Assembly (NCBI GenBank): GCA_028716845.1
Contig: JAQUPF010000001.1
Span: 216,167-280,166, forward strand
Reading direction: 5' to 3'
DNA length: 64,000 nucleotides
Source: a bacterium
Lineage (GTDB): Bacteria; Auribacterota; Tritonobacteria; UBA1439
Below are positions 8,300 through 64,000 of the stretch, in pieces. The first letter of the stretch is position 1. Every line of letters begins with the position of its first letter. Made by a program: the position numbers and the translations under genes. The notes below the pieces were generated by a model, which saw only the letters and a program-made list of their open reading frames with translations, had not been told where the DNA came from and made no database searches.

Positions 8300-8333
8300 G
8301 ATTCCTTCCTGCGGAGATTGTCCCGCGGGACCG

Positions 8334-12808: not shown

Positions 12809-12822
12809 ACGGGGCCGCCCGA

Positions 12823-13083
12823 TCACTTGAGGAGGAGGAGCCGGACATCCCTGACGCCGAGCTCGTCCCCGGAGCAGGGAAGTTTGCCGGCGAATCCCTC
12901 CGGCACCTTTCTCCTGGTGTCCCGAGTGGCGGAGATGTCCTTCTTCGGGAATGGCGAGGACTCGACCAGTTCCACGATCCCGCGTATGCCGAGACGGTTG
13001 ATGGCCGGGCTGTGGCAGATGGCGTCCACCTCCCGCCTCGCCACCTCATCCTCCGGGCCTTTGGACTTCAGCATGTCTTCCAT
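12823..13083 (-). CDS. 86-aa stand-alone paralog of the C-terminal domain of the methyltransferase at 17803..18978
   Basis: Track ORF; MEDMLKSKGPEDEV...NRLGIRGIVELVESSPFPKKDISATRDT...LLLLK aligns with the last about 86 aa of the 452-aa ORF (roughly 60% identical by eye). Confidence 0.4.
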   Translation of the reverse strand: MEDMLKSKGPEDEVARREVDAICHSPAINRLGIRGIVELVESSPFPKKDISATRDTRRKVPEGFAGKLPCSGDELGVRDVRLLLLK

Positions 13084-13106
13084 TTCCGCATCGGTGAGGA
13101 ACGGCG

Positions 13107-14636: not shown

Positions 14637-14703
14637 GATTCCTTCCCGCCCCGGCTTCCCCGCTGCTCGGTCATGAGAATCGGCCTCTCACCGTTGTGGG
14701 GGC

Positions 14704-17783: not shown

Positions 17784-17802
17784 CCCCGGCGCGTCCGGCC
17801 AA

Positions 17803-21226: not shown

Positions 21227-21290
21227 CTCTCTTTCAGCTCGTCGTTCGTACTTCGTACATCGTACATCGCAAACAGAGGTTAATCCACAC
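21098..21290. repeat. About 190-bp duplicated segment spanning GT2 5' coding end, RBS and upstream hairpin, copy 1
   Basis: Near-identical to 22161..22353 (a few mismatches over about 190 bp, constant offset 1063). Confidence 0.7.
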
Positions 21291-21305
21291 AGTACGATGT
21301 ACGAA

Positions 21306-22289
21306 TCAGCGCCGGAACGGCAATGAAAAGACCGACTTCACCGCGCGCCACGCCCGCTGGACGGCGGAGCCGACCTTCCAGGCCTTGGAGGCGTACACCG
21401 ACCGGAGTTCGTGCTCGCGCTCATCGAGCAGGCGGCGGAGCTCGCCGGGCTCGCCCCTGTTCAGCGCGGTCTCCAGCTCCCGTATGTAGCGGTGCGCGTC
21501 GTCGTGGTGCCCCAGCAGCCAATCGAGCTCCTCCTCCCGGTGCCGCCAGTAGAGGCGGTACTCGCCGAGCAGCCGGTCCTTGCCGCGGATGACCTCGAGG
21601 GCGTGCTCCCGGAACGACGCGGCGTGCCTGGCGATGATCCGGTCCATGATCTCGCCCCGGTACTCGGGGCTGTTGCTCCGGTGGTGCTTCCCCCCCTCCC
21701 TGATCCTGTACCGGAAGAGGAACTCCTCCAGGACGTGCGCGCGGTACCCCCGCTCGAGGATGCCGATCCAGAAGTCCCAGTCCTCGTACCCCGGCAGCGT
21801 CTCGTCGTATCCCCCCACCTCCTCCCACGCCTTCCGCCTGAACAGCGAGGCGGTGCAGGCGCGGTTGTCGACGAGGAAATCGGCGAGCGTCGCGGAGTCC
21901 GGGTCGACCGTGCCGGGCTTGTCGCCGAAGAAGGTGTACCAGAACGTCACGATCCCCACGCCCGGGTCTCCGTTCATGACGGCGCCCGTCTTCTCGAGGC
22001 ACGCCGGCTCGAGGAGGTCGTCCGGGTCGAGGCAGCAGACGTACTCGCCGGAGGACAGCGAGATGCCGTGGTTCCTCGCCGCCCCCGCCCGCTTCCGCTC
22101 CGTGGCGACGACCCTCGTCTTCGGCCGCCGGTAGTCCGCGAGGAGGGCGTTGGTCTCCTCGTCGGTCGAGCCGGGATTCACGACGATGATCTCGAAGTCC
22201 CGCATCGTCTGCGCGAGGACGGAGCCCACCGCCTCGTCCAGGTACCGGCCGAGGTTGAAGCAGGGGATGATCACGCTGACTTTGGGCAT
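21306..22289 (-). CDS. GT2 family glycosyltransferase, paralog of the N-terminal domain of 19181..21226
   Basis: Track ORF 21306..22358; ATG at 22289 gives MPKVSVIIPCFNLGRYLDEAV..., nearly identical over the first about 60 aa to the downstream tandem GT2. Confidence 0.8.
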   Translation of the reverse strand: MPKVSVIIPCFNLGRYLDEAVGSVLAQTMRDFEIIVVNPGSTDEETNALLADYRRPKTRVVATERKRAGAARNHGISLSSGEYVCCLDPDDLLEPACLEKTGAVMNGDPGVGIVTFWYTFFGDKPGTVDPDSATLADFLVDNRACTASLFRRKAWEEVGGYDETLPGYEDWDFWIGILERGYRAHVLEEFLFRYRIREGGKHHRSNSPEYRGEIMDRIIARHAASFREHALEVIRGKDRLLGEYRLYWRHREEELDWLLGHHDDAHRYIRELETALNRGEPGELRRLLDEREHELRSVYASKAWKVGSAVQRAWRAVKSVFSLPFRR

Positions 22290-22353
22290 CTCTCTTTCAG
22301 CTCGTCGTTCGTACTTCGTACATCGTACATCGCAAACAGAGGTTAATCCACAC
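22161..22353. repeat. About 190-bp duplicated segment, copy 2
   Basis: See 21098..21290. Confidence 0.7.
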
Positions 22354-22403
22354 CGCACCCAGAACGAAGTACGAAGTACGATGTACGATGTACGAAGTAC
22401 GAA
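22308..22403 (-). promoter_or_regulatory. Perfect 25-bp inverted repeat (GTAC-rich) with 46-nt loop in the leader of the GT2 gene
   Basis: Arm TTCGTACTTCGTACATCGTACATCG (22308..22332) is the exact reverse complement of 22379..22403; a shorter 14-bp version precedes the next GT2 gene (about 21253..21305). Confidence 0.5.
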
Positions 22404-22409
22404 CCGTAT

Positions 22410-25091
22410 TCATCTGGATCGGGCCATCTCCATGAACCGGAAGAGCCGGAGGAGGTAGCCGGCGTCGTGGAGGAGGAGGCCCTTCTTCTCGAAGATTTCG
22501 GCGTCGTCCTCGCCGGCCCGCCTCGCCGCCCGGAAGGCCCGGAGGCTCCTTCCGAGCCGCCGCGGTCCGTGGCCGATGACGAAACCCAGGCCGAACATCT
22601 TCCGGTGCATGAGGGCGTCCGAGTACCCCCCCCAGAACGCCTTGCGCATGACGTACTTCCTGTTCAGCCGCTCCGGGTCCACGAAGTGGTAAATGACGGC
22701 GTCCGCGGTGTAGTAGATCCTGTAGCCGTTCCTCGAGAGGAAGAAGTTGAGGAGCGTCTCCTCCCCCTGGTAGAGGCGCTTCCCCGTCCGCCCCAGCCGG
22801 CCGTGGAAGCGGGCCCAGGGAAGGTTCAGGAGCTCCTTCCGGTAACAGGAATTCCCCCCGCCGAGGTAGTCGGGGTGCTGGATGCGGATGACCCGCTCCG
22901 GCCGCCCGCGCCGCTCGTAGTCGAGGCCGTAGAAGCCCCAGACGTACGGGGTGTCGAACCAGGGCGGGAGATCGAAGCCCTCGACGGGGACGGGCACCAC
23001 CTTCCCCCCGACGACGTCGGCATGGAATCGCCGGATCGTCTCGTCGAAGGCGGCGAGCCAGCGGCGGTCCGCCGCGGCGTCGTCGTCCAGGTAGGCGACG
23101 AGGTCGTACCTCGAGTGCCGGATGCCCGTGTTCCGCGCGTTCGAGAGGCCGAGGACCGGCTCGAAGCAGTACCGGAAGGGGACGGGGGACGCCTCCCGGA
23201 GGGCGGCGGCCGTCTCGCGGGTGGCGTCGGCGCTGCCGTTGTCCACGACGATGATCTCGTAGCGGTCCCGCGGGTAGTCCAGGGCGAAGAGCGACTCGAC
23301 CGCCTTCCTGAGGTAGTCCGCGCGGTTGTGCGTGCAGACGATGACGGAGAAGCCGCCCGGGCCCGTCGACGACGCCGGCATGGAGAACGGCTCCCGCAGT
23401 TCGAGCGGCCCGATCCCCACGGCGCCGTCGGACGACCCTTCGACGGCCTCCCGGCGCAGCGTGACCGGGTCCAGGAGACCCACGTGGGCGGTGTAGCTCG
23501 CGCGGGGGATGGTTTCGATGAACAGGTCGTCCCTGCAGGCGAGCCCCCGCTTCCATCGCCGGGTCCCGCCGATGGGGGCGTGGTCGAGGTTGAGGAACCC
23601 GACGGATCTCCTCTCTTCCGGCAGCGCGCCGGGATCGTCCGGGTAGAGGTGCGTGAAGACGAGGAAATTGTCGCGGGGCTTCCGGTGCGGGAGGAAGAAG
23701 AGCGTGAGGACGCGGTTCCGCTCCGTCCAGCCGAGGAGGGTGACGGGGCCGATCCGGGCGTTCACCGGGTGGGCGATTTCGGCCCACGCCTCCGCGGGCG
23801 GGAGGGCGCCCCGGCCGCGCGCCGCCTTCGCGCGCCCCTCCCTCCACTCGCGCAGGAACGCCCTCGGCCTCAGGAAGACGCCCCCCGAGCGCCGCAGGCA
23901 GCCGAGGAGCCTCGCGCCCTTGCGGGCGGCCGTGGAGAGGCCGTCCCGCGGGCGGACGAGAGCGCCGAGGAAGTCGCGCGCGAGGGCGCCGAGGTGCCGG
24001 AGCGCGGCCGGACGCCCCTCGCCATCGACCTTCGAGACCGCCTCCGCCATCCCCTCCTCGTATGAGCGCCGCAGGGAATGCCGCCTCGCCGCCCCGGGCG
24101 CCACCCCCTCCCCCGCGGCGAAGACGCGGAGGAGCCGCTCCGGGTCGGGATCCTTCATGGAAACCTGCCTGTTGAATATCAGATCGTGGAGGAACCGGTC
24201 CCGCAGATCGCGGTCGACCTCGAATCGCCGCGCCGCCGGCAGGTCGTAGTTGAATACCCCCTCCTTGCCGGAGCCGATCCCCCGCCCCAGGTAAGTGACC
24301 GGCTTGTCGAAGAGGAGGGCCTCGAGCAGGACGGTGGAGTTGATCCCCACCACGCACCCGCACCGGGCGAGGGAGTCCCTGAGGTCGCCCCCCTCCTCGA
24401 CCCGGACGCCGGGGATCTCCTCCCCGAGGCGGAGGAGGCGCTCCTTGTCGGGATCGAGCGGGTGGCACCTGCACACGATCTCCTCGCCGGGGAGGGCGGA
24501 GGCCATGTGCCGGACGAACGCCGCCATGTCCCTCCAGGGCGAGAACTGCACGATGTTCATGTCATCCGCGATCTGGAGGGGGCAGAAGACGAAGCCGTCG
24601 TCCCCGATGGCGCGCCCGCCGCGGTACCCGCTCCTGAACGCCTCGAGGGCCGGGCGGTCCAGCGGCAGACGCCGCACCTCGGCCGCGGTCATCTCCGCAA
24701 TGCTTGAATCGGCGTTGATCCCCCGCCCGTCGAAGTAGACGTGCTCCCGCTGGGGGAACCAGCCGGCCTCGGCGTAGACGACCCCGCACGCCGGGAGCTC
24801 CTCCCGGATGAACCGGAGCGGCCGCTCGTAGAGCGGATGGTGCTTGTTCCAGCAGAGGACCCTCGACGGCCGGATCCCGGCGAGGATGCGCTCGAGGGCC
24901 TCCCCGCCGAACTCCTCCTCGCCGAGCCGGCGGAAACGGTACGGGGCCAGGATCTCGAGGTCCCCCTCCGCGAACAGCCAGCAGTAGAAGCCGTGGATGC
25001 GGAAGGAACCGCCCAGGATCCGGAGACAGTTCGCCAGGAAGCGGGCGGAATGCTCCGTGCAGGTGTCGAGAACCACGAGATCCGGTTTCAT
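22410..25091 (-). CDS. Fusion protein: capsule-polysaccharide-biosynthesis-like N-terminal domain + C-terminal GT2 glycosyltransferase
   Basis: Track ORF 893 aa; N-terminal half resembles KpsC/LpsZ-type capsule synthesis proteins (FVFCPLQIADDMNIVQFSPW...GINSTVLLEALLFDKPVTYLG); C-terminal GT2 core FSVIVCTHNRADYL...DNGSAD...DDDA. Confidence 0.65.
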   Translation of the reverse strand: MKPDLVVLDTCTEHSARFLANCLRILGGSFRIHGFYCWLFAEGDLEILAPYRFRRLGEEEFGGEALERILAGIRPSRVLCWNKHHPLYERPLRFIREELPACGVVYAEAGWFPQREHVYFDGRGINADSSIAEMTAAEVRRLPLDRPALEAFRSGYRGGRAIGDDGFVFCPLQIADDMNIVQFSPWRDMAAFVRHMASALPGEEIVCRCHPLDPDKERLLRLGEEIPGVRVEEGGDLRDSLARCGCVVGINSTVLLEALLFDKPVTYLGRGIGSGKEGVFNYDLPAARRFEVDRDLRDRFLHDLIFNRQVSMKDPDPERLLRVFAAGEGVAPGAARRHSLRRSYEEGMAEAVSKVDGEGRPAALRHLGALARDFLGALVRPRDGLSTAARKGARLLGCLRRSGGVFLRPRAFLREWREGRAKAARGRGALPPAEAWAEIAHPVNARIGPVTLLGWTERNRVLTLFFLPHRKPRDNFLVFTHLYPDDPGALPEERRSVGFLNLDHAPIGGTRRWKRGLACRDDLFIETIPRASYTAHVGLLDPVTLRREAVEGSSDGAVGIGPLELREPFSMPASSTGPGGFSVIVCTHNRADYLRKAVESLFALDYPRDRYEIIVVDNGSADATRETAAALREASPVPFRYCFEPVLGLSNARNTGIRHSRYDLVAYLDDDAAADRRWLAAFDETIRRFHADVVGGKVVPVPVEGFDLPPWFDTPYVWGFYGLDYERRGRPERVIRIQHPDYLGGGNSCYRKELLNLPWARFHGRLGRTGKRLYQGEETLLNFFLSRNGYRIYYTADAVIYHFVDPERLNRKYVMRKAFWGGYSDALMHRKMFGLGFVIGHGPRRLGRSLRAFRAARRAGEDDAEIFEKKGLLLHDAGYLLRLFRFMEMARSR

Positions 25092-31489: not shown

Positions 31490-31800
31490 CCCCGAACCGC
31501 GGATCTCCACGGATCATTGACGGATTGTCACGGATTGGATTGCAGTAGATACAGGGTTCCGGCCGCGGATTGACGCAGATACAACCGGCCACAGAGGACA
31601 CAGAGAACGCAGAGGATAGTGCCGCTTTCGGCTTTGAACGTTCAACTTTGAACTGTAGTTGTCCTCTGTGCTCTCTGTGGCTGACACATTGTTCCTTCCA
31701 CTCCACGCTCCCGCTTCCGACTCCGGACTGAAGTCGGATCCGCGATAATCCGCGTCGATCCGCGGCAAGAACATTATCCATTCGCGCTGATCTGCGCGGA
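31490..31800. repeat. Mosaic intergenic repeat element, copy a
   Basis: Contains module X (about 31563..31662, forward) and module Y (about 31496..31560, reverse) shared with other copies; lower GC than flanking genes. Confidence 0.7.
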
Positions 31801-34509: not shown

Positions 34510-37101
34510 ATGCCGCGCCATCTTCGCTCCAGGACGCGTCTCCTTCTTTCCGCACTCGCCATCGCCTTTCTCATCCCGGCCGTCCCGCTCCGCGCCCAGC
34601 CCGCGGCGTCGGCGTGGCCGATGTTCCGCGGGAACCCCGCCCGGACGGGGCTGAGCGCCCACGAGGGGCCGAAGACGGGCAAGCGGCTCTGGCGCGTGAG
34701 CGCCGGGGACGCGATCGACACCTCCCCCGCCATCGGGACCGACGGCACGATCCACGTCGGCTCGTGGGACAGGCGCCTCTACGCCTTCCTTCCCGACCGG
34801 ACGCTCGCCTGGAGCTACGAAACCGGCGACCGGATACTCTCCTCGCCGGCGATCGACGCCGGCGACAGGGTCTATTACGGCTCCTCCGATATGCGCCTCT
34901 ACTGCCTCACGTCGGCGGGCTCGCTGGTGTGGAGCTACGAGGCGGCCGGCGACATCGTCAGCTCGCCGGCGATCGGGCCTGACTCCGAGATCTACTTCGG
35001 CTCCTGGGACAATGCCCTCTACGCCCTCGACTCGGGCGGATCCCTCGCGTGGAGCTACATGACGTCGGGGGGGATCGGCTATTCCTCTCCGGCGCTCGAC
35101 GGCGACGGCGGCGTCTACATAGGATCCTGGGACAGGATCCTGTACGCCCTCTCATCCGAAGGCGCGCTCCGGTGGAGTTACCATGCCGGGGGCTCGGGCA
35201 TCGACACCACCGCCGCCGTCGGTCCCGGGGGGAACATCTATTTCGGGAGTGTCGACACCGGCACGCTCTTCGCCGCCGATTCGACCGGCTCGTTCCTGTG
35301 GAGCTACGAGGCCGGCTGGGGGAGTATCTCCTCCCCCGCCATCGGCGCCGCCGGACGGGTCTACTTCGGCTCATCCGACCACAACGTCTACGCCCTCACG
35401 CACGACGGCGCGCTCGCCTGGAGCTACGAGCTCGCGTACGATCCGCAGTGGTCGGCGCCCGCCGTCGATGCCGAGGAGGGGATATACGCCGCCGGCGGCT
35501 GGCCGGCGAGGGTCTTCTCGTTCGACTCCGCGGGGACGTTCCTCTGGAGCTACAGCACGGGAGGCAACATCAATTCCTCCCCCGCGATCGGGGCTGACGG
35601 GACGCTCTTCATCGGCTCCGGCGACCGGCGGCTCCTCGCGCTCTACGATCCGACACCCACGCCGACGCCGACCGCCCCGACTCCCACGCCGACGGAGACG
35701 CCCACCGCCGGCCCGCCGGAGCCGGTCTTCGCCGTCGGGCGCACCTACGATCCGGCGCTCAGCGTATCCCATCCGGTCATCCTCCAGCGGCACGGCGCGC
35801 GGTGGCTGGACGTCGCCCCCGCCATGGAGGCGTCGCTCTGGCAGGTGGACGTAACCTCATGGAGCGACGCGTGGGCGGCGGGAGACGTCTGGGACCCGGT
35901 CGCCGAGGTGGCGAACATCGTCATCCTCCGGTGGGACGGATCGTCGTGGACGGACGTCTCGCCGCCGGGGATGGAGGGGTACTTCAGCGACATGCACATG
36001 CGCTCCGCCACGGAGGGGCTCGCCGTGGGGTCCTACTGGGACGAGGTCCAGGAGAAGTCCTTCGTCAAGACATGGAGCTGGGACGGGTCTTCATGGACCG
36101 ACGTCTCCCCGGTCATCGAGGGATGGCTCAACGGTGTCGGGATGGTGTCGGCCACTGAGGCGTACGCCGTCGGCAGTTGGTGGGATCCCGTGGATTCCAA
36201 ACAGTACATCAGGATACTCTCCTGGGACGGCTCCTCCTGGACCGCCATCGCCACGCCCGACGCCGAGGGGTATCTCGAGTCGCTGACCATGACCGGGCCG
36301 GGCGAGGGATACGCCGTCGGCAGCCGGTGGGATCCCGTGGCGGGGCAGTCACGCATCGTTATCTTCCGCTGCTCGGGAGGCGCATGGTCGGACGTGTCGC
36401 CCGGCGATGAAGGGTATCTGAATGACATCAGCATGTCCTCATCCGGGGAAGGGTACGCCGTCAGCAGTTTCTGGGACGATGACGAGGAGCTCTCCTACGC
36501 CCTCATCCACCGGTGGGACGGGACGGCCCTCACCGACGTGACGCCCCCGGGCATGCGGGGCTGGCTCGGCAGCGTGGACGTCAGGCCGGGCACGGGGCAT
36601 GCCGTCGGCTCGTGGTACGATCCCGAGACAGAGACGACGTGGTGCCGCATCGCCGATTTCGACGGCTCCTCGTGGACGGAGGCGTCCCCCGATTTCGCGG
36701 TCGATCTCAACGACGTCTCGATCGGGCCGCTGGGACCCTCGCCGACGCCGACGGAGACCCCGTCCCCGACGCCGACCGAGACGCCCTCGCCGACCCCGAC
36801 GCCGACGCCGGAGACGTACTGCTACGGGCCGCTCGGGATCTGCTACCTCCTCCCGCACGGGAATCCGCCGGTGCCGGAGAGCTACCCGGTGAACGACTGC
36901 GACGAGTGCGATACCTACACGCCGACGCCGACCGAGACGCCGGGGGAGACCCCCACGCCGACGCCCACGCCGACGGGCACGCCCGCGCCGGACGGCCCGT
37001 GGGTCAACTTCCAGCCCGATTCCGTCGACGTCCCCTTCGGCTACGTCCTGATGGACGAATCGGCGTACGGCGTCCGCGGCGAGCGGGGCTGGGTGTACTG
37101 A
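34510..37101 (+). CDS. Secreted multi-repeat protein: PQQ-like beta-propeller repeats, Thr/Pro linkers, second propeller-like W-D-G-S-S-W-T repeat domain, Cys-rich C-terminus
   Basis: Track ORF 863 aa; GGGAGGGG RBS; signal peptide; repeated Y-x-x-S-x-D-x-x-L-Y-A-L units; TPTPTPT linkers; at least 6 units of about 47 aa with WDGSSWTDVSP...GYAVGS. Confidence 0.75.
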   Translation: MPRHLRSRTRLLLSALAIAFLIPAVPLRAQPAASAWPMFRGNPARTGLSAHEGPKTGKRLWRVSAGDAIDTSPAIGTDGTIHVGSWDRRLYAFLPDRTLAWSYETGDRILSSPAIDAGDRVYYGSSDMRLYCLTSAGSLVWSYEAAGDIVSSPAIGPDSEIYFGSWDNALYALDSGGSLAWSYMTSGGIGYSSPALDGDGGVYIGSWDRILYALSSEGALRWSYHAGGSGIDTTAAVGPGGNIYFGSVDTGTLFAADSTGSFLWSYEAGWGSISSPAIGAAGRVYFGSSDHNVYALTHDGALAWSYELAYDPQWSAPAVDAEEGIYAAGGWPARVFSFDSAGTFLWSYSTGGNINSSPAIGADGTLFIGSGDRRLLALYDPTPTPTPTAPTPTPTETPTAGPPEPVFAVGRTYDPALSVSHPVILQRHGARWLDVAPAMEASLWQVDVTSWSDAWAAGDVWDPVAEVANIVILRWDGSSWTDVSPPGMEGYFSDMHMRSATEGLAVGSYWDEVQEKSFVKTWSWDGSSWTDVSPVIEGWLNGVGMVSATEAYAVGSWWDPVDSKQYIRILSWDGSSWTAIATPDAEGYLESLTMTGPGEGYAVGSRWDPVAGQSRIVIFRCSGGAWSDVSPGDEGYLNDISMSSSGEGYAVSSFWDDDEELSYALIHRWDGTALTDVTPPGMRGWLGSVDVRPGTGHAVGSWYDPETETTWCRIADFDGSSWTEASPDFAVDLNDVSIGPLGPSPTPTETPSPTPTETPSPTPTPTPETYCYGPLGICYLLPHGNPPVPESYPVNDCDECDTYTPTPTETPGETPTPTPTPTGTPAPDGPWVNFQPDSVDVPFGYVLMDESAYGVRGERGWVY

Positions 37102-38484: not shown

Positions 38485-38652
38485 CTACAGTTGAAAGTGG
38501 AAAGTTGAAAGTTCAAATCCGCGGCAGGAACGCCGTTTCTTCGGCTGGAGTCAAATCCGCGGCAAGAGCTCTGATACTTTCAACTTTGAACTTTTAACTT
38601 TGAACAGTTGGATCCGTGGCAATCCGTGGTGGATTCGTTCTTGATACTTACG
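38485..38652. repeat. Mosaic intergenic repeat element, copy b
   Basis: GTGGAAAGTTGAAAGTTCAAA / TTTCAACTTTGAAC internal inverted repeats and terminal CCACGGATTGCCACGGATCC module shared with other copies. Confidence 0.6.
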
Positions 38653-38665
38653 GCTGCGGTTGCGG

Positions 38666-38932
38666 TCAGTGGGCGCGGCGGCCGGGAGGCATGTACAGGT
38701 AGCAGTGCTTGTGGCGGGCGAGGATCGGCTTGAGCTGGTCGGTATCGGGCGGGCTCAGGACCGTGGCGTCGAAATTCCCCCCCACCGACGCGAAGACCAT
38801 CTCCTTGAGACGGTCGACGGCCTCCTCCGCGAACCGGCCCTTCGCCGAGAGGGAGAGCTCCGGGCAGTGCGCCTCGAAGATCCCGTCCTCCCGCTCGTCC
38901 ACCTCAACCGTCAGATGCAGCCGCCGACCCAT
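38666..38932 (-). CDS. Hypothetical small protein at the 3' end of the por operon
   Basis: Track ORF 88 aa; no strong RBS; no recognisable motif. Confidence 0.3.
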   Translation of the reverse strand: MGRRLHLTVEVDEREDGIFEAHCPELSLSAKGRFAEEAVDRLKEMVFASVGGNFDATVLSPPDTDQLKPILARHKHCYLYMPPGRRAH

Positions 38933-42020: not shown

Positions 42021-42099
42021 CGCCGCCCCGCCCCGGCACGCGCGCACAATGCACAGGGCCTTGCATTATACCACAGCCGCCGCGGGACCCCAAAGCCGA

Positions 42100-42490
42100 A
42101 TCATCCGAATCAGCCCGGCAACAAGAACAAATCCACCACGGATTGGCGCGGATCCAACTACAGTTCAAAGTTAAAAGTTCAAAGCCGAAAGCAGCACTAT
42201 CCTCTGCGTTCTCTGTGTCCTCTGTGGCCGGTTGTATCTGCGTTAATCGGCGGCCGGAACCCTGTATCTACTGCAATCCAATCCGTGACAATCCGTCAAT
42301 GATCCGTGGAGATCCGCGGCTCGTGGTTCATCGTTCCGCTGCGTCTCGCGCGATGGACGAAGGACGAACGACGAACTGCGTGTACAGAATCCGCGCGAAT
42401 TTGCGGCAAACAAGGTCCTCCGTGTTCTCTGTGTGCTCTGCGGCGAACCAGAACCGTGAAGATCCGCGGTTGATTGTGGCTTGATATATG
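42100..42490. repeat. Mosaic intergenic repeat element, copy c
   Basis: Module X reverse (about 42155..42250), module Y forward (about 42279..42378), terminal module ending about 15 nt from the recR stop. Confidence 0.7.
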
Positions 42491-42502
42491 CGGCGGGGGC
42501 GG

Positions 42503-43099
42503 TCAGACGGGGGTGCGGCCCTCGATCGCCCTGCTGATGGTGACCTCGTCGCTGAAGTCGAGGCTGCTCCCCATCGGGATGCCGTGGGCGATGCGTGTCG
42601 CGCGGACGGGGGTCTCTTTCAGCAGGCCGGCGAGGTAGATGGCGGTCGCCTCCCCCTCGACGTCGGAGCCGGTGGCGATGATGACCTCGGCGATGCCGCC
42701 CTTCCGCACGCGCTCGACGAGCTCCCGGACGCGGAGCGCCTCGGGACCGACGCCGTCGAGGGGGGAGAGCCGGCCCGCGAGGACATGGTAGACGCCGCGG
42801 TACGTCCCCGCCTTCTCGACCGCAACCACGTCGGCGGGGCGTTCGACGACGCAGACGAGGCGGGCGTCGCGCCGCCCGTCCGCGCAGATCGGGCACGGGT
42901 CCGTTTCCGCCAGGTTGTAGCAGACCGAGCAGTGGTGGATCGTCGTCCGGAGGTCGGCGACCGCCGCGGCGAGCGCGGCGGCGTCCGCCTCGGGCGCCTT
43001 GAGGAGGTGGAAGACGATCCGCTCGGCGCTCCGCGGTCCGATGCCGGGGAGCTTCGTGAGCTCCGCAATCAGCCGTGCGATGGGACGGGGGTAGCGCAT
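42503..43099 (-). CDS. recR: Recombination protein RecR
   Basis: Track ORF; helix-hairpin-helix N-terminus, C4 zinc finger CSVCYNLAETDPCPIC, Toprim domain. Confidence 0.9.
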   Translation of the reverse strand: MRYPRPIARLIAELTKLPGIGPRSAERIVFHLLKAPEADAAALAAAVADLRTTIHHCSVCYNLAETDPCPICADGRRDARLVCVVERPADVVAVEKAGTYRGVYHVLAGRLSPLDGVGPEALRVRELVERVRKGGIAEVIIATGSDVEGEATAIYLAGLLKETPVRATRIAHGIPMGSSLDFSDEVTISRAIEGRTPV

Positions 43100-46519: not shown

Positions 46520-47017
46520 CTACCGTTCGTCGACGGTGATCCTGTCGATGAAATCGAGGCTCCCGAGCGACCGCTGGCACGCCTCCACCATCCACGGATC
46601 GTCGGTGCCGGCGAGAGACCGGAGGAGCGGTTTGATCGCGGCCGGGTCGCCGATCCTGCCGAGGGCCCGGGCGGCGCTCCGCCGCGTGCCGCCGTTCGGA
46701 TCGTTGAGCGCCCTGACGAGGGGCTCGACGGCGCGCCGGTCGCCGATCGCGCCGAGCGCCTCCGCCGCCCGCTCCCGCACGCCGCCGCTCGAATCGCCGC
46801 GGAGGGCGTCGATGAGCGGCGGGACCGCCGCCTCTCCCATGCCGCCCAGCATCTTCGCCGCGTTCTTGCGGTCGGCATCCCTGCCGGTCCTGAGGAACGA
46901 GACGAGCGAATCGAAGGTGACGGCGGCGGCCCCGTCATCCGCCGGCGACGCGACGGGCCGCGCCGCGGAGGCGGCGACGAGGATCGCCGCGAAGACCGCG
47001 CGTCTTCCGATTCCCAT
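46520..47017 (-). CDS. Secreted HEAT-repeat (PBS-lyase-like) protein
   Basis: Track ORF; signal peptide; repeated VRERAAEALGAIGDRRAVEPL / TRRSAARALGRIGDPAAIKPL units; GGAGGGAG RBS and TATAAT box just upstream. Confidence 0.6.
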   Translation of the reverse strand: MGIGRRAVFAAILVAASAARPVASPADDGAAAVTFDSLVSFLRTGRDADRKNAAKMLGGMGEAAVPPLIDALRGDSSGGVRERAAEALGAIGDRRAVEPLVRALNDPNGGTRRSAARALGRIGDPAAIKPLLRSLAGTDDPWMVEACQRSLGSLDFIDRITVDER

Positions 47018-47080
47018 GTGGATCTCCCTCCGGGAGGAATTATAGCACGCCGGCCCGCGCCCGTCACACGATGTCCCCGG

Positions 47081-47400
47081 CCCGCGACCGACCGCCCTTC
47101 CCTGAAGACACGACGCGCCAAGCCACCGCCGCCTATATCAAGCACCAATCAACCACGGATTGGCACGGATCCAAACGACAGTGGAAAGTTGAAGGCATAA
47201 CGCCGAACGTAAAGTCGTTTCCGCCGCGGATGAACGTGAACAGCAGCTCGCTCTTTTCGCCACGGAGATCACAGAGAACAACTCCAGTGCGAAGTTGAAC
47301 GTTCAAAGTCGAAAGCAGCACTATCCTCTGCGTTCTCTGTGTCCTCTGTGGCCGGTTGTATCTGCGTCAATCCGCGGCAAGGCAGTTCATTTCATCGACG
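47081..47400. repeat. Mosaic intergenic repeat element, copy d (begins with 90-bp direct repeat DR1)
   Basis: DR1 47081..47170 is about 91% identical to 47918..48007; module X reverse at about 47291..47380. Confidence 0.7.
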
Positions 47401-47487
47401 GCAATGGTGGATTGGTGCGTGTCGAGTTCGTGCTTTGTGGCGGCGGGCGGAATCGGCTATAGTGTCGTCCGGTCGGGGGAGAGCGCC

Positions 47488-47928
47488 ATGCCGGATCTCG
47501 TCACGCACCTCTGCGCCGCCCAGGTCATCCGGCGCCTCCTCCGGCTCCGCCTCTTCCCCCTCTTCGCCCTCGGCGCCGTCCTCCCGGACCTCCTCTCGCG
47601 GCCGGCGCACATCCTCTTCCCCGGCACCGCCCCGTTCGTCGTCGCGTTCCACTCGCCCGTCGTGCTCCTCCTCTGCTGCCTCCTCGCGAGCCTCCTGTTC
47701 GCGCGGCCGATACGGCGCGCCTGCCTCGGGTACCTCGCGGCCGGCTCGGCGCTCCACCTCGCCCTCGACGTCATGCAGAAGCAGATCTGCCCGGTCTACT
47801 ACTACTGGCTCTTCCCCTTCTCGCGCTGGACGTGGGACGCCGACCTGTTCTGGCCGGAGCAGGCCCTCCTCCTCCTCCCGGTCACCATCGCCGTCACCGC
47901 GCTCGTGACGGTCCTCACCCGCGACTGA
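47488..47928 (+). CDS. Inner-membrane protein, YdjM/DUF457-like putative metal-dependent hydrolase
   Basis: Part of track ORF 47356..47928; ATG 47488 with GGGGGAGAG RBS; MPDLVTHL start and four hydrophobic helices; family assignment tentative. Confidence 0.55.
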   Translation: MPDLVTHLCAAQVIRRLLRLRLFPLFALGAVLPDLLSRPAHILFPGTAPFVVAFHSPVVLLLCCLLASLLFARPIRRACLGYLAAGSALHLALDVMQKQICPVYYYWLFPFSRWTWDADLFWPEQALLLLPVTIAVTALVTVLTRD

Positions 47929-48175
47929 CCGCCCTTCCCTGAAGACGCGACGCACCAATCCACCGCCGCATATATCAAGCACCAATCGACCACGGATCGG
48001 CACGGATTACGACGGATGAGCACGGATCCATACCACAGCCGGGAGCGGCGGTGTTCTTGCCGCGGATTGACGCAGATACAACCGGCCACAGAGGACACAG
48101 AGAACGCAGAGGATAGTGCTGCTTTCGACTTTGAACGTTTAACTGTAGTTGGGATCCGTGATCATCCGCGGCGGC
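47918..48175. repeat. Mosaic intergenic repeat element, copy e (begins with DR2 overlapping the stop codon of the preceding gene)
   Basis: DR2 47918..48007; module X forward at about 48059..48150. Confidence 0.7.
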
Positions 48176-48218
48176 TTTGTCCTTCCGGGTCCGTTCCCTT
48201 CGCGCGCGGCGGGCGGGG

Positions 48219-49493
48219 CTACAGGCCGCGGAGGGACTCGCGGGCGGCGTCTATCGTCCGGTCGATGTCACGGTCGCCGTGGGCCGCCGACAGGAACCAC
48301 GCCTCGAACGGCGACGGGGGGAGGAGGACGCCCCGTTCGAGCATCCCGCGGAAGAAGCGGGCGAAGCGGCCGCGGTCCGCGGCCCGTGCCGACTCGAGGT
48401 CCGTGATCGGCCCTTCGCCGAAGAACAGGGTGAGCATCGAGCCCTCGCGCTGGACCGCGTGCGGCACGCCCGCCTCGCGGCACGCCTCCCCCAGTCCGGC
48501 GGCGAGCCGCCTCCCCTTCTCCTCGAGGACCGGGTAGAGCCGGCGCGTCGAGAGGATCGAGAGCGTCGCGATCCCCGCGGCGGTGGCGAGGGGGTTCCCG
48601 GAGAGCGTCCCCGCCTGGTAGACCGGCCCGGCGGGGGCGAGGAGGTCCATGATCTCCGCCCGGCCGCCGAAGGCGCCGAGCGGCAGGCCGCCGCCGAGGA
48701 TCTTGCCGAGGACGGTGAGGTCCGCCGCCACGCCGAACCGCTCCTGCGCGCCGCCGTAGGCGACCCTGAAACCGGTGATGACCTCGTCGAGGACGAGGAG
48801 CGCGCCGCACTCCCGCGTGCGGTCGCGCAGCGCCTCGAGGAACCCCGGCAGCGGCGGGACGACGCCCATGTTCCCCGCCACCGGCTCGACGATGACGCAG
48901 GCGATCTCGCCGCCGCGCTCGCGAAGGAGCGCCCCGGCGGCGCCGGCGTCGTTGTACGGGAGGGAGACGGTGGCGCGGGCGAAGGACGGCGGCACGCCGG
49001 CGCTCGACGGGACCGAGAAGGTCTCCGCGCCCGAGCCGGCCTCGACGAGCATCCCGTCCGCATGGCCGTGGTAGCAGCCGGAGAACTTGACGACCGTCTC
49101 CCGCCGCGTGAAGGCGCGCGCGAGGCGCACCGCCGCCATCGCCGCCTCGGTGCCGGTGCCCGTCATGCGGAGCCGCTCGACGGAGGGGAAGGCCCCCTGC
49201 ACCAGCTCGGCGAGCGCCACCTCGCCCGGCGACGGCATCCCGAACGTCGTCCCCTTCCGGAGCGCCTCCTCGACGGCCGCGAGAACGACCGGGTGGGCGT
49301 GGCCGAGGATGAGCGGGCCCCACGAGCAGACGTAATCGACGAGCTCGCGGCCGCCGGCGGTCCGGAGCCTGTCTCCCCGCGCGGATACGGCGAAGAACGG
49401 CTCGCCGCCGACGGCGCCGAAGGCGCGCACCGGCGAATTCACGCCGCCGGGGATCGCCGCGAGCGCCCGCCGCCACAGTTCACGCTCGTTCAT
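48219..49493 (-). CDS. hemL: Glutamate-1-semialdehyde 2,1-aminomutase
   Basis: Part of track ORF 48219..49703; ATG 49493 (MNERELWRRALAAIPGGVNSPVRAF); PLP-enzyme motifs of HemL. Confidence 0.85.
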   Translation of the reverse strand: MNERELWRRALAAIPGGVNSPVRAFGAVGGEPFFAVSARGDRLRTAGGRELVDYVCSWGPLILGHAHPVVLAAVEEALRKGTTFGMPSPGEVALAELVQGAFPSVERLRMTGTGTEAAMAAVRLARAFTRRETVVKFSGCYHGHADGMLVEAGSGAETFSVPSSAGVPPSFARATVSLPYNDAGAAGALLRERGGEIACVIVEPVAGNMGVVPPLPGFLEALRDRTRECGALLVLDEVITGFRVAYGGAQERFGVAADLTVLGKILGGGLPLGAFGGRAEIMDLLAPAGPVYQAGTLSGNPLATAAGIATLSILSTRRLYPVLEEKGRRLAAGLGEACREAGVPHAVQREGSMLTLFFGEGPITDLESARAADRGRFARFFRGMLERGVLLPPSPFEAWFLSAAHGDRDIDRTIDAARESLRGL

Positions 49494-49519
49494 GGGGAGG
49501 GGCCATCTTACCCCATCCG

Positions 49520-49810
49520 TCCGCGGCCACAAAGCGCAAACTCGACAACGCACACTCGACACGCACCGATCCGCCACGGACCGGCGCGGATCCAAACGAC
49601 AGCGGAAATTTGAACGCATAAAGCCGAACGTGAGGCCGTTTCCCACGTTGAACTTTTCGCTTTGAACGTTCAACTGTGGTTGGGATCCGTGACAATCCGT
49701 CAATGATCCGCGGAGATCCGCGGCTCGTGGTTCATCGTTCCGCTGCGGCTCGCGCGATGGACGAAGGACGAACGACGAACTTCGTTGACAGAATCCGTGG
49801 CAGGGAGTTC
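49520..49810. repeat. Mosaic intergenic repeat element, copy f
   Basis: Module Y forward (about 49689..49788, about 100 bp with 2 mismatches to copy c) plus AACGTTCAA-type inverted repeats. Confidence 0.7.
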
Positions 49811-49821
49811 ATTGTCATCCC

Positions 49822-51162
49822 TTGGCTGCGGCCGCGGTGGATCGGGAATATGGTACACTTTGCGCCGTGGACAAGGCGAAGGTGGCGATTCTCAGGACGT
49901 CTCCCGCGACGGTGCTCCGGGATTATCACCGGCTGATGAACCTCGCCGGCTACCGCGAGGTCCTGCCGGCGGACGCGGAGACCGCCCTCAAGGTCAACAT
50001 CTCCTGGCACTTCTTCTTCCCCGGCTCCTCCACCCCCCCCTGGCAGCTCGACGGCGTCATCCGCGCGCTGAGGCGTGACGGCTACGACCTCCGCCGCGTC
50101 CACGCCTGCCACAACCGCACCGTGGTCATCGACGCCCGCCTCGGCGAGCGGGAGAACAAGCAGCTCCCGGTGGTCGAGGCGCACGGGATCCGCAACGTTC
50201 ACCTCTACGAGGGCGCCGAGTGGGTCAACGTCCGGGAGGCGGTCGGCCCGCTCGCCGATCGGTTCCTCGCCCTGAACGGCGTCTACCCGCGGGGCTTCAT
50301 GATCCCGCGCCGATTCATCGGGGAGAACATCATCCACCTGCCCACCGTGAAGACCCACGTCTTCACGACGACCACCGGGGCGATGAAGAACGCCTTCGGC
50401 GGCCTCCTCAACGAGAAGCGGCACTGGACGCACCCGGTCATCCACGAGACGCTCGTGGACCTCCTCATGATCCAGAAGGCCATCCACCGGGGCGTCTTCG
50501 CCGTGATGGACGGCACCTTCGCCGGCGACGGCCCCGGCCCCCGCTGCATGACGCCGCACGTGAAGAACGTCATCCTCGCCTCGGCCGACCAGGTCGCCAT
50601 CGACGCCGTCGCCGCCCGCATCATGGGCTTCGACCCGCTCTCCATCCGGTACATCCGGCTCGCCCACGACCTCGGCCTCGGCTGCGGCGATCCGCGCCTG
50701 ATCGAGATCGCCGGCGACGAGGCCGCGGCGGACGAGAACTGGCGGTTCACGGGGCCGCTGGAGCGGCTGACCTTCGCCGGCAGGATGCAGCACCGGATCT
50801 ACTGGGGGGGCCTCCGGCGGCCGGTGGAGTGGACGCTCAAGACCGTCCTCGCCCCCTGGGCCTACGCCGCGAGCGTCCTCTACCACGACGCCTTCTGGTA
50901 CCCGTCACACCAGCGGATCGTCCGCGAGTCGCTCGGGAGCCCCTGGGGGCGACTCTTCAACAACTGGGAGCGGCTCGCCATCCCGCCGGACGACCTCGAT
51001 CGGCCCGGCTGGGAGGACGTCGGGGGAGCGCCGGCGGAGGTGCGGCGGCAGTCGGCGCGGCTCCTCGCGAAATCGGCGCGGATCCTCTGGACCTGCCTCC
51101 GGGAGGCGCCGGAGCTCGGCGCCCGCAGGCGGTGGCGGCGCGCGGCCGGGGGTCCCCGTTAG
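49822..51162 (+). CDS. DUF362-like uncharacterised protein
   Basis: Track ORF 446 aa (TTG at 49822; true start uncertain); family assignment from overall similarity only. Confidence 0.45.
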   Translation: MAAAAVDREYGTLCAVDKAKVAILRTSPATVLRDYHRLMNLAGYREVLPADAETALKVNISWHFFFPGSSTPPWQLDGVIRALRRDGYDLRRVHACHNRTVVIDARLGERENKQLPVVEAHGIRNVHLYEGAEWVNVREAVGPLADRFLALNGVYPRGFMIPRRFIGENIIHLPTVKTHVFTTTTGAMKNAFGGLLNEKRHWTHPVIHETLVDLLMIQKAIHRGVFAVMDGTFAGDGPGPRCMTPHVKNVILASADQVAIDAVAARIMGFDPLSIRYIRLAHDLGLGCGDPRLIEIAGDEAAADENWRFTGPLERLTFAGRMQHRIYWGGLRRPVEWTLKTVLAPWAYAASVLYHDAFWYPSHQRIVRESLGSPWGRLFNNWERLAIPPDDLDRPGWEDVGGAPAEVRRQSARLLAKSARILWTCLREAPELGARRRWRRAAGGPR

Positions 51163-58212: not shown

Positions 58213-58514
58213 GGCTGGTCTTCGCCTTTCTCCGCGTGGACGCCGTGATGTGCGTCCTTCTTTTTACCTTTCGATCCTTAAAAAGCCGTCATGTTATCCG
58301 AATGATATCCTCAAGTCAATATGCATAATAGATATAATCATGGCATCGTTCGACTATTAACAAAACATATATCTCATTGGTTATATCATATCATCACAAA
58401 GTTATAGACACATTTTCATTTAAGAGGTATACATCGCAGGAAGTTCTATCCGCACTAAGTCACAATACACACTACAAGAGGATATTATGACATTATAATG
58501 GATATATTTCATAG

Positions 58515-58529
58515 TGGCACATAATATGC
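58515..58529 (+). promoter_or_regulatory. Candidate sigma-54 (-24/-12) promoter inside the AT-rich divergent region
   Basis: TGGCACATAATATGC, same GG-N10-GC spacing as consensus; about 55 nt upstream of ATG 58584. Confidence 0.5.
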
Positions 58530-58583
58530 TTATATAAACGAACAGGCACACAAAATGTGCATGCAGAGGAAAGGAGATTGAAA

Positions 58584-58883
58584 ATGATGGCAACAAGATT
58601 CCTCAGGACACTCGCGGCCGTCGTCGCGGCCGCCGCGGTGCTGGCTTCGACGGTCGACGCCGCCGGGAAGGTGAACATCAACACCGCCTCCCGGTGGAGG
58701 CTCGAGAAGCTGCCGGGGGTCGGTCCGGACATCGCGCAGCTGATCATCGCCTACAGGAGGGATTCAGGCGGGTTCAGGAGTGTCTCCGAGCTCGGCCAGA
58801 TACCCGGCATCGGCGGAAAGAAGCTTGAGGGTCTCAAGCGCGTCGCCACCGTCGGCCGGCTCGCGGAGCGCGACCGTCTCTGA
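58584..58883 (+). CDS. ComEA-like secreted helix-hairpin-helix DNA-binding protein
   Basis: Part of track ORF 58557..58883; ATG 58584 with AGGAGA RBS; signal peptide; INTASRWRLEKLPGVGPDIAQLIIAYRRDSGGFRSVSELGQIPGIGGKKLEGL. Confidence 0.7.
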   Translation: MMATRFLRTLAAVVAAAAVLASTVDAAGKVNINTASRWRLEKLPGVGPDIAQLIIAYRRDSGGFRSVSELGQIPGIGGKKLEGLKRVATVGRLAERDRL

Positions 58884-62497: not shown

Positions 62498-62599
62498 GGC
62501 CGTCCTCCCGCGCGCGCCGCGCTGCTTCCGAAAGGCGCGGCACAATAGCCCAACGGCGAAAATGGTGTCAAGCGGAAAGTACGGCGCCGGCCCGGGAGG

Positions 62600-62930
62600 G
62601 AACAATAATGCACTCCACCCTGCGGATCGGCGCGGATCCCGACAACAGTTGAACGTTCAAGGCGAAACGTTCAAAGCGGGAAACGGCGGAAACCCTGTTC
62701 CTTTCGGCCGCCTTCTCATCCGCGTGGATCCGCGTGCATCCAAGGTTGAAAGTGGAAAGCAGGCAAATGCCTTGCCGCCACAGAGATCACAGAGACCACA
62801 GAGGAATCGGAGAGTCCATCTTGTTCAATCCGCGATAATCCGCGTGGATCCGCGGCGAACACCATCCTCCGTGTTCTCTGAGTGCTCTGTGGCGGACTGC
62901 AACCGTGCCGATCCGTGGTGGATTGATGCT
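62600..62930. repeat. Mosaic intergenic repeat element, copy g
   Basis: Shares ATCCGCGATAATCCGCGT-GGATCCGCGGC, AACGTTCAA and CACAGAG-type modules and the terminal CCACGGATCGGCACGG module with other copies. Confidence 0.65.
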
Positions 62931-64000
62931 CCGTTTCCGGCGGGGCGGGGACGATCTCGATCGACTCGATCCGGAGGTCGGCGGCGCCGAGGTGGAGGAC
63001 GGCCACCTCGGCCGCGCTCCTCGCGTGCAGCGCGAAGGGGAGGGTCACGGTCCCGTACCGGCCGGCCCGGAGGGGGTCGCCCGCCTCCACCTCCCCCCGG
63101 ACGACCGCCGCTCCGCCGGCGCGCACCTCGACCGCCGCGACCGCGCCGGCCGCCGCGCGGTCATACCGCATCCTGACCCGCGCCGCGTACGCGCCGCCCT
63201 CGAGCGGGTGGGGAGGCGTCGCCGCGACGGCGCCCGGCGGGTCGTCCTCGCGGCCGGCGAACCGCGCGGGCCCTCCCGTCTCGTCCGCCGGCCGCTGCGT
63301 GCCGGTCTCGAACGCGAGGAGGTGCGCGTCATACTTCCTGCGCCTCGTGAGGGCGACGCGGCAGAGGACCGCCGCGGACCCGTCCGGGAGCGGGCCTGAA
63401 CCGGCGGTGGAGAGGAGCGCCCACGGCCGCCCCCACGCCTCGAGTGCCGCACGGTCGGCATCATCCGACACGCGCGCGAAGACGAGGCGCGCCTCCTCGG
63501 GGGGCGCGAAGACCGCACGCATCCCCCCGCGCTCTATCCGGTACAGGAACGTCTCCCCGCCGGCGCGGCCCGGGTCGACGCGGAAGAGCGAGATGGCGAC
63601 CGGCGCGCCGTCGCCGCCCCGGGCGGGCACCTCGCGCGCGAGTAGAATGCCGAGGGCGTCGGCGAGCGCCGCCTCCTCCGCGGGCGGTTCGCCGCCGCGG
63701 GGAGCCAGCGCCGTCCACGCCATCGCCGCGGCGGCGACCGCGCACGCCGCGCCGAGCCGGAGCCGCCGCGCCGTCCCGCCGCCGACGAGCGACAGCCCGC
63801 CTCCGGCCAGGACCGCGGCCGCCGGGAGGGCGGGGACGAGACGGTCCGCCGACGCGACGCCGGCGAGCGGGAGGCCGGCGAGCGGGACGGCGATCCAGAG
63901 GAGGAGGGCGGGATGGGCCCTCCGCCGCGCCGCCGCGACCGCGAGGCCGGCGGCGGCCAGGATGAGCATCGGCAGCGCCGCGGCGTCCGGGCGCCACGGG
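62716..64000 (-). CDS. Membrane-anchored hypothetical protein, N-terminus beyond window end; 3' end runs into repeat copy g
   Basis: Track ORF 62716..63969 continues in frame to the window edge; hydrophobic N-terminal region; last about 70 codons are translation of the repeat element. Confidence 0.4.
   Translation of the reverse strand, partial: PWRPDAAALPMLILAAAGLAVAAARRRAHPALLLWIAVPLAGLPLAGVASADRLVPALPAAAVLAGGGLSLVGGGTARRLRLGAACAVAAAAMAWTALAPRGGEPPAEEAALADALGILLAREVPARGGDGAPVAISLFRVDPGRAGGETFLYRIERGGMRAVFAPPEEARLVFARVSDDADRAALEAWGRPWALLSTAGSGPLPDGSAAVLCRVALTRRRKYDAHLLAFETGTQRPADETGGPARFAGREDDPPGAVAATPPHPLEGGAYAARVRMRYDRAAAGAVAAVEVRAGGAAVVRGEVEAGDPLRAGRYGTVTLPFALHARSAAEVAVLHLGAADLRIESIEIVPAPPETEHQSTTDRHGCSPPQSTQRTRRMVFAADPRGLSRIEQDGLSDSSVVSVISVAARHLPAFHFQPWMHADPRG

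Follow-up and report, generated by a model that had tools for sequence, protein, structure and literature searches.

In the present study, a 90-bp direct repeat bracketing a YdjM-like membrane-protein gene was analysed in a 64-kb stretch, hereafter the window, of contig JAQUPF010000001.1 from the genome assembly GCA_028716845.1 of a bacterium of the Auribacterota. The two copies of the repeat, DR1 upstream of the gene and DR2 across its 3' end, appear to be built of two layers, a reading to which we give a probability of about 55%. The 3' part of either copy is a module, termed A, of a repeat family dispersed over seven intergenic spacers of the window; the 5' part would be the native end and flank of the ydjM-like gene, of which DR1 would hold a local copy. 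The gene is surrounded by a direct repeat and by opposed copies of a further module, X, because DR1 and DR2 are the left arms of two foldback spacers, and the family alone would yield direct and inverted repeats around any gene lying between two such spacers.

The proposed two layers of the direct repeat

A preliminary description of this DNA had reported a 90-bp direct repeat around the gene, and alignment at base resolution bears this out far beyond chance: DR1 (47081-47170) and DR2 (47918-48007) are identical at 83 of 90 positions (92%) without a gap (BLAST E ~1e-31). It had also stated that DR2 opens with the end of the gene and that the stop codon is changed to CGA in DR1. Both statements hold; the first base of DR2 is the middle one of the third-last codon (A/CC CGC GAC TGA, the slash marking the border), and DR2 includes exactly the last 11 nt of the open reading frame (ORF) 47488-47928, and the TGA with its T at 47926 faces a CGA with its C at 47089. 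The left edge of the repeat is sharp, the 41 columns upstream of it being identical at 17 positions, which is the background for the local G+C (GC) content. On the right side, DR2 has 20 nt more than DR1, corresponding to two units of a 10-nt CACGGAT array (Tandem Repeats Finder: period 10, 3.8 copies, 47991-48028). Past this insert the match picks up again for 11 nt (CCAAACGACAG / CCATACCACAG), to 47181 / 48038, beyond which the two sequences diverge. The divergence of the pair comes to seven substitutions in 90 nt, the TGA/CGA change included, and the two-unit change in the array. Single-strand folds of DR1 and DR2 were not better than those of shuffled sequences on either strand (z -0.12, 0.72, -1.34 and -0.33). 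The gene and the parts of the repeat are as follows.

47488-47928, + strand: intact gene for a YdjM-like inner-membrane protein of 146 amino acids (aa)
47081-47121, + strand: DR1 5' part, a putative copy of the final 11 nt of ydjM (stop changed to CGA) and of 30 nt of its 3' flank, with a truncated A-like start inside (GCGCCAAGCCACC)
47122-47181, + strand: DR1 A module, an outer extension (CCACCGCCGCCTATAT) followed by the core (CAAGCACCAATCAACCACGGATTGGCACGGATCCAAACGACAG), left arm of the foldback spacer upstream of ydjM; nhmmer match 47140-47181 (E 8e-12), inverted partners 47405-47421 and 47353-47377
47918-47958, + strand: DR2 5' part, made up of the gene's final 11 nt (CC CGC GAC TGA) and 30 nt of 3' flank
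47959-48038, + strand: DR2 A module, four 10-bp-phased (C)ACGGAT units, two more than in DR1, left arm of the foldback spacer behind ydjM; nhmmer matches 47976-48007 and 48012-48038, inverted partners 48154-48184 and 48143-48168

The 3' layer was recognized by self-comparison of the window, in which the last 50-60 nt of the direct repeat proved to be module A of a dispersed, modular intergenic repeat family of lower GC content. The first 40 nt of the repeat probably derive from the end of the gene, as the preliminary description had it, but over half of the repeat, and module X as well, belong to a family that recurs in seven spacers. Module A consists of 10-bp-phased CACGGAT-type units with CAAGCACCAATC in front, and A-type matches are located at 38608-38660 (-), 42451-42500 (-), 42122-42189 (+), 49560-49643 (+), 62898-62930 (-) and 48143-48184 (-). 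A profile made from the A copies (nhmmer) finds nine full copies in the window, all in spacers, and these are oriented '+' at the left edge of a spacer and '-' at its right edge. Together with four copies of X they sit in seven spacers of 290-470 nt (at 31.4, 38.3, 42.0, 47.0, 47.9, 49.5 and 62.5 kb), which have 37-199 12-mers in common, compared with at most 11 for the other spacers. The GC content is ~55-60% for the family and 56-61% for the repeat-bearing spacers, against ~72% for the genome, a drop of ~12-15 points, and nested inverted repeats are present in every one of these spacers. Pairs of A modules facing each other edge the spacers 42048-42502, 47929-48218 and 62498-62935, and partial pairs are found in 47018-47487 and 49494-49836. 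The repeat-filled spacers are therefore described as foldback mosaics, with an A module pointing inwards at either end and the internal modules B, X and Y between them; DR1 forms the left arm of the mosaic upstream of the ydjM-like gene, and DR2 that of the mosaic downstream of it. The gene downstream, convergent with ydjM, encodes a class-III aminotransferase whose position and size fit hemL (glutamate-1-semialdehyde aminomutase), the name used for it below. The other family modules around the two genes, and the most complete copy, are these.

47182-47222, + strand: module B, which adjoins A both at this site and in the copy that lies upstream of hemL (49603-49643)
47259-47381, + strand: module X in forward orientation, a hairpin of the CACAGAG array (arms 47259-47279 / 47332-47352) and, behind it, a GGAT arm
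47405-47451, - strand: partial A-like right arm of the upstream spacer (reverse complement CGACACGCACCAATCCACCA), in inverted repeat with 47139-47155 (88%)
47415-47451, within the preceding feature: leader motif in common with the region upstream of hemL (against the reverse complement of 49516-49553, 87%)
48053-48184, - strand: composite of X and A', right arm of the ydjM-hemL spacer, ending 34 nt from the hemL stop; matches the reverse complement of 42123-42260 (84% over 139 nt), with an nhmmer A match at 48184-48143 (E 1e-8)
42113-42502, unstranded: reference family copy, a complete foldback spacer in the order A' (inward), X, Y, then A (inward), its right arm directly after the recR stop codon

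Downstream of DR1, A runs directly into B, as it does upstream of hemL (47139-47222 against 49560-49643, 83% over 84 nt). The region of module X folds into a strong RNA hairpin (-47.7 kcal/mol, z -4.2), and its other copies are at 31562-31681 (93%), 42155-42254 (92%) and, inverted, 48056-48144 (99%). The earlier statement that X lies in opposite orientations on the two sides of the gene is confirmed, 47293-47381 and 48056-48144 being complementary at 88 of 89 positions. These two arms are far more alike than X and its remaining copies (92-95%) or DR1 and DR2 (92%), and such near-identity implies that they were homogenised, or one copied, recently. The gene and DR2, on the 674 bp that separate the arms, could in principle be inverted; an inversion or a misassembly between them was rejected, as ydjM is convergent with hemL in the window as in all relatives. 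A 38-nt motif (GTGCGTGTCGAGTTYGYGCTTTGTGGC...) was also observed 40-70 nt ahead of the ydjM start codon and, with 87% identity and an equal orientation relative to the gene, ahead of that of the hemL-like gene. By eye, TCA stands at both ends of 42113-42502; a 3-bp TCA/TGA target duplication was not adopted, as it is present at this spacer only, with no equivalent at the other spacers, whose borders are blurred by mosaic extensions.

In addition, the ORF 62716-63969 (-) has a protein-like body that ends at ~62940 without a stop codon and continues for ~73 more codons through repeat modules to a TGA at 62716, the A module within it being translated as HQSTTDRHG. Either the end of this gene has been replaced or extended by repeats, or its true end has been mis-called. 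Rfam had no match, either locally at the E-value threshold or for the whole window at gathering scores, and no tRNAs were found; the six-frame translations of the repeat, joined into one chimeric query to pick up spurious ORFs lying over further copies, matched nothing in a protein database at E <= 10; the 24 matches to CCGCCCTTCCCTGAAGAC in species-representative genomes were all chance matches without extension; and none of the 106 matches to the A core CCGCCGCMTATATCAAGC in metagenome contigs was longer than 24 nt.

The 5' layer behaves differently. Its 40 nt (47081-47121 / 47918-47958; CCCGCGACYGACCGCCCTTCCCTGAAGACRCGACGCRCCAAK) occur nowhere else in the window, even when the search is made at low stringency, statements about a third copy resting on these 64 kb, and an 18-mer taken from it occurs exactly twice, with a chance expectation of 0.11. 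No significant inverted partner of this part was found in either spacer. Relative to the A copies that follow recR and the 88-codon ORF 38666-38932, the direct repeat has an extra 28 nt between 'TGA CCGCCC' and 'CCGCCGCATATATCAAG', and these contain a truncated A-like start, GCACCAATCCACC (weak nhmmer match, 47950-47966). At recR (42503-43099, -) the A extension begins directly after the TGA; all 16 RecR orthologues read are 198 aa long, and most end in TPM or TPV, as does the protein of the window (EGRTPV). On this comparison, the family at recR begins after the native stop codon and adds no codons. Since the 40 nt are confined to the pair, have no inverted partner, and the family starts after a native stop at recR, this part most likely represents ydjM's own 3' end with its flank and not a family module.

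The sequence around the stop codon was compared in the same manner. In the closest relative on record, locus L140, ydjM ends ACC CGG AAG TGC TGA CCG ACC C, against ACC CGC GAC TGA CCG CCC in the window, so that the context TGA CCG is common to both, and a CACGGAT array follows in both; the joint alignment of the two ends is marginal, 4% of shuffles scoring equally well. A stop codon followed by CCG(C) is common in the window, including at a gene without an A module (37588: TAG CCGCCCCCGC), and the context is thus not a signature of the element. The longer CCGCCC directly follows the stop in three of 46 crude gene calls (37588, 42503 and 47928; two TGA, one TAG), one of them without a repeat module, and may be a preferred post-stop context of the genome. 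That 'TGACCGC' might be the element's own tip was rejected as specific evidence on these grounds and because the RecR end is native. The balance of evidence favours, without securing, a native ydjM end, in which case DR1 holds 11 nt of ydjM.

Neighbouring genes and comparison with relatives

The label 'YdjM-like', given in the preliminary description, is reasonable for the 146-aa protein and holds chiefly via its homologues: its own score against Pfam PF04307 is 24.1 bits, under the gathering cutoff of 29, and 17 of 22 other YdjM homologues are precomputed matches to this family. The conserved His/Asp/Pro columns are intact, the invariant H7, D34, H55, H90 and D94 being kept. The protein is 100% identical to PHN82_01285, a hypothetical protein of a metagenome-assembled genome (MAG) at NCBI, and the relatives are labelled Candidatus Aureabacteria/Auribacterota or Chlamydiota. 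The genes on the two sides are as follows.

46520-47017, - strand: HEAT-repeat protein gene, divergent from ydjM (Pfam HEAT_2, E 1.5e-37)
48219-49493, - strand: class-III aminotransferase gene (hemL), convergent with ydjM (Pfam Aminotran_3, E 5e-65)

The 63 nt upstream of DR1 comprise the start of the HEAT gene and a promoter-like site, placed at 47067-47039 by a promoter scan. In the loci retrieved around YdjM homologues of relatives, gene order is conserved as ydjM(+), aminotransferase(-), DUF362(+), Cys/Met enzyme, PALP and metallophosphatase. The ydjM-hemL junction varies among the compared loci, whose YdjM identity is only 63-73%, with L140 the closest (73% aa).

L029: the 3' ends overlap by 20 nt (2930-2949)
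L030: the 3' ends overlap by 14 nt (6458-6471)
L025: a spacer of 92 nt containing a GGAT-type module
L140: ydjM flanked on either side by long spacers of GGAT arrays
Window: a spacer of 290 nt filled with repeats

In L029 and L030 the YdjM tail is encoded antisense to the last codons of the aminotransferase. The spacers of L025 and L140 carry a repeat module, so the module behind ydjM is older than the species of the window.

Upstream of ydjM, the picture is one of broken synteny. MoeA and/or ApbE lie upstream of the gene in all longer loci of relatives, and neither is found anywhere in the window. The recR-dnaX-DcrB-lipoprotein block of the window is syntenic with L142/L143, where the HEAT gene is absent, and the loci retrieved from relatives around RecR, the lipoprotein and ydjM (L142/L143, L025-L033) gave no counterpart of it. 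The recR-dnaX-DcrB-lipoprotein and ydjM-hemL-DUF362 blocks are each conserved and are adjacent in the window alone, with the HEAT gene between them (46520-47487). With MoeA/ApbE missing upstream and a HEAT gene foreign to the recR block, the DR1 spacer is the junction of two synteny blocks. Comparison with related loci, which the preliminary description had proposed as a check on a duplication, thus places DR1 at a synteny junction but shows a single ydjM in all loci fetched.

The spacers of the relatives could not be aligned with the direct repeat past short motif arrays. Arrays of CACGGAT / CCGCGGAT phased at 10-11 bp were observed in their spacers at different loci (L140 1116-1400 and 1895-2064; L142 1536-1570; L025 6595-6686), in relatives with just 68-77% protein identity whose spacers are otherwise not alignable. 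Motifs of the CACGGAT type are found clade-wide, which suggests either a long-lived element family or a conserved binding motif.

Proposed origin of the upstream copy

Herein, we propose that DR2 would be the resident arrangement, in which the native gene end and its flank are followed by the left arm of the downstream foldback, and that the 5' part of DR2 with the adjacent A module would have been copied to the upstream spacer, as DR1, by a local, homology-driven event. Two routes might be considered. By the one, unequal crossing-over between A modules of the same orientation would generate a tandem duplication, and the first copy would later be cut away by the rearrangement that placed the HEAT gene alongside; by the other, a short templated repair patch would have been drawn from 837 bp downstream at the rearrangement junction. 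The seven substitutions per 90 nt and the two-unit array change would have accrued after the copying. Counted by eye, the A core of DR1 is identical to that of DR2 at 30 of 32 positions and to the A copy at 49560, which shares its A+B arrangement, at 25 of 32; a core nearer DR2 combined with a layout like that of the 49560 copy fits a recombinant within A. As no remnant of a first copy is present, the crossing-over and patch routes are not separable. The preliminary description had favoured a tandem duplication of gene plus repeat followed by loss of most of the first gene copy. From this proposal it stands that DR1 is most likely a copy of the gene's 3' end and downstream sequence, but no gene-like sequence lies upstream of DR1, the sequences following DR1 and DR2 differ, and the A-to-B joint after DR1 is the standard arrangement of the family (49560-49643) and not a novel joint. 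A short templated copy, or a gene end brought by the element, explains the data as well as duplication and decay of a whole gene. No function of the duplication itself is implied.

Several observations weigh against the two-layer reading. Left of 47081 there is no remnant of a first gene copy or of donor sequence, either in the alignment (17/41) or by BLAST at word size 7 over 47018-47080, and no microhomology was seen at the 47080/47081 junction; the 8% divergence between DR1 and DR2 points to an old event, of which the traces may have been erased. The lack of a third copy of the 5' part is a weak argument, covering 64 kb of the genome. Alignments to L140 of the gene tail alone and of the post-stop sequence alone are not significant, and a native TRD* is statistically weak. 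The tail of the protein (..LTRD*) ties with that of the homologue P0004 as the shortest of 19 aligned, which fits a tail replaced by an element. Moreover, the recR end (ACCCCCGTCTGACCGCCC) and the ydjM end are identical at 16 of 18 positions, and an in-frame match of 7/9 upstream of the stop is found at just 0.7% of in-frame positions; this likeness could mean that the tip of the family carries such a sequence.

The last two points lead to the main, though tentative, alternative, which we regard as somewhat unlikely, namely that DR1 and DR2 are insertions of one foldback subfamily with the tip CCCGCGACYGACCGCC. The copy in the tight ydjM-hemL junction would have replaced a variable basic tail and would supply the last codons and the stop (TRD*), and DR1 would be the same tip at a non-coding site where the stop was not maintained. 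In the more distant relatives L029/L030 the ydjM and hemL ends overlap by 14-20 nt without a spacer, where the window has 290 nt of repeats, so that an insertion at this place could not leave both gene ends unaltered. The joint-shortest tail, the truncated A-like start inside the 5' part and the recR-ydjM likeness agree with such a history, as do the ORF 62716-63969, in which family modules are readable as coding sequence, and the in-frame fusion of repeat units to annotated genes documented in enterobacteria (PMC2759123). However, a third copy of the 5' part is absent among the nine A copies in the window, and two copies of a rare subfamily in adjacent spacers and in the same orientation are better explained by a local event. 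Neither spacer holds an inverted partner of the 5' part, RecR has a C-terminus of native length and sequence, a gene without an A module (37588) likewise shows 'stop + CCGCCC', and a GGAT-type module already follows ydjM in L025 and L140, where the tails are different.

Duplication of the whole 837-bp unit of gene and repeat, with loss of the first gene copy save for its last 11 nt at DR1, is unlikely. The same-orientation A modules around the gene are a substrate for unequal crossing-over, and the hybrid A to be expected, with the ydjM end on its left and, on its right, the old upstream continuation (module B), is what DR1 looks like; a breakpoint 11 nt inside the gene would be tolerable only with a second copy, and the spacer with the synteny break is the one in which DR1 has its left edge. 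Nevertheless, two events are required, the second with a breakpoint within 11 nt of the gene end, a relic of the gene body left of DR1 was found neither in the 41 columns nor by BLAST, and with a single ydjM in every fetched locus two copies are on record in no relative. Very unlikely is the possibility that the CACGGAT arrays are multi-site ends of an undescribed class of mobile or protein-bound element and that DR1 represents the 'transduced' last bases of the gene that it follows. An assembly artefact, in which the upstream spacer would be a chimeric join made through repeats by a metagenome assembler and the true distance from DR1 to the gene would not be 837 bp, is likewise very unlikely. 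The source is a MAG, the modules of the spacer recur in the window with 92-99% identity, the DR1 spacer is where synteny with all relatives is lost, and repeats of this kind tend to lie at the contig ends of relatives (L140 is 2 kb long); but the differences between DR1 and DR2 (7/90 and a 20-nt indel) are not those of an identical repeat that was collapsed or duplicated, the left edge of DR1 joins unique sequence that reads must span, and the ydjM-hemL orientation is ancestral. Even after a misjoin, a DR1 with a fragment of the gene end would exist somewhere in the genome.

Known repeat systems and meaning for the organism

By analogy, the closest architecture to that of the present family is that of the BOX elements of Streptococcus pneumoniae. 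BOX elements (boxA-boxB(n)-boxC) are small, non-coding and multi-copy with a variable number of modules, form foldbacks, are AT-richer than the host, occur clustered or nested, are sometimes read as ORFs and sometimes alter neighbouring genes (PMC3049150). The family of the window is likewise small, non-coding, multi-copy, foldback and lower in GC, with A, B, X and Y combined differently in seven spacers; it differs in having no sequence relationship to BOX, a host of another phylum, and modules that are arrays of 9-10-nt phased motifs (CACGGAT, CACAGAG, GTTGAAAG). Miniature transposable elements of the inverted-repeat type (MITEs), such as the enterobacterial RU-1/ERIC, RU-2 and RU-3, the Correia elements of Neisseria and the pneumococcal RUP, resemble the family in their inverted termini, small size, many copies and intergenic location. 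There are documented cases of MITE-type repeats read in frame as part of annotated genes (PMC2759123). The read-through at ORF 62716-63969 is comparable, as would be the ydjM end if it were element-borne; however, neither a clear target-site duplication nor an empty-site polymorphism could be demonstrated for the family, its boundaries are blurred by mosaicism, and at recR the repeat follows the native stop without adding codons.

Repetitive extragenic palindromic (REP) sequences and the bacterial interspersed mosaic elements (BIMEs) that they form are extragenic mosaics of short motifs in alternating orientation, often just after stop codons or between convergent genes. An overview of REP sequences is PMC3733652. 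The family shares the extragenic mosaic and the post-stop placement, but module A is not an imperfect palindrome of 20-40 nt, the folds of the direct repeat have z of about -1.3 to 0.7, and X alone forms a strong hairpin. Tandem duplication by unequal crossing-over between flanking insertion sequences, REP or rrn copies is classical in Salmonella and E. coli. The ydjM region has the same-orientation repeats around a gene and, in DR1, a hybrid of downstream flank and upstream continuation; it differs in that only the junction-like hybrid is present, the body of a duplicated gene is not, and a duplication would be deduced from the hybrid. Taken as interspersed modular intergenic repeats, the family appears to be undescribed, with no match in Rfam and no mention in the sparse literature that names the phylum.

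Other features of the window were observed as well. A 567-nt region without a called gene (58213-58779) has a GC content of 47%, the minimum of the window, and holds no 12-mers of the family and no Rfam match. Tandem diverged paralogues occupy 19379-23262, in three to four units spaced at ~1060-1260 nt with 61-89% identity; paralogous pairs (7798-8342 / 14135-14679 and 12810-13094 / 17790-18074) lie 5-6.3 kb apart; and a gene at 34720-35626 has internal repeats of ~120 nt, followed at 36.7-37.0 kb by Pro/Thr-rich 12-nt repeats.

The direct repeat matters little for the ydjM-like gene itself, which is intact, present once and, with respect to hemL, still in the ancestral position, and under the two-layer reading the pair is an ordinary by-product of the spacer family and of a small local duplication. 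Repeats around genes are an expected by-product of the family in this lineage, and they should be checked against it before duplications or cassettes are called. The family is associated with a break in synteny, with the read-through of repeats by an ORF and with the fragmented contigs of relatives, and therefore bears on the quality of MAG assemblies. If the element transduction considered above were true, it would represent a bacterial way to scatter gene-end fragments and stop contexts. Finally, the family bears on the evolution of spacers and gene ends in a high-GC uncultured bacterium.

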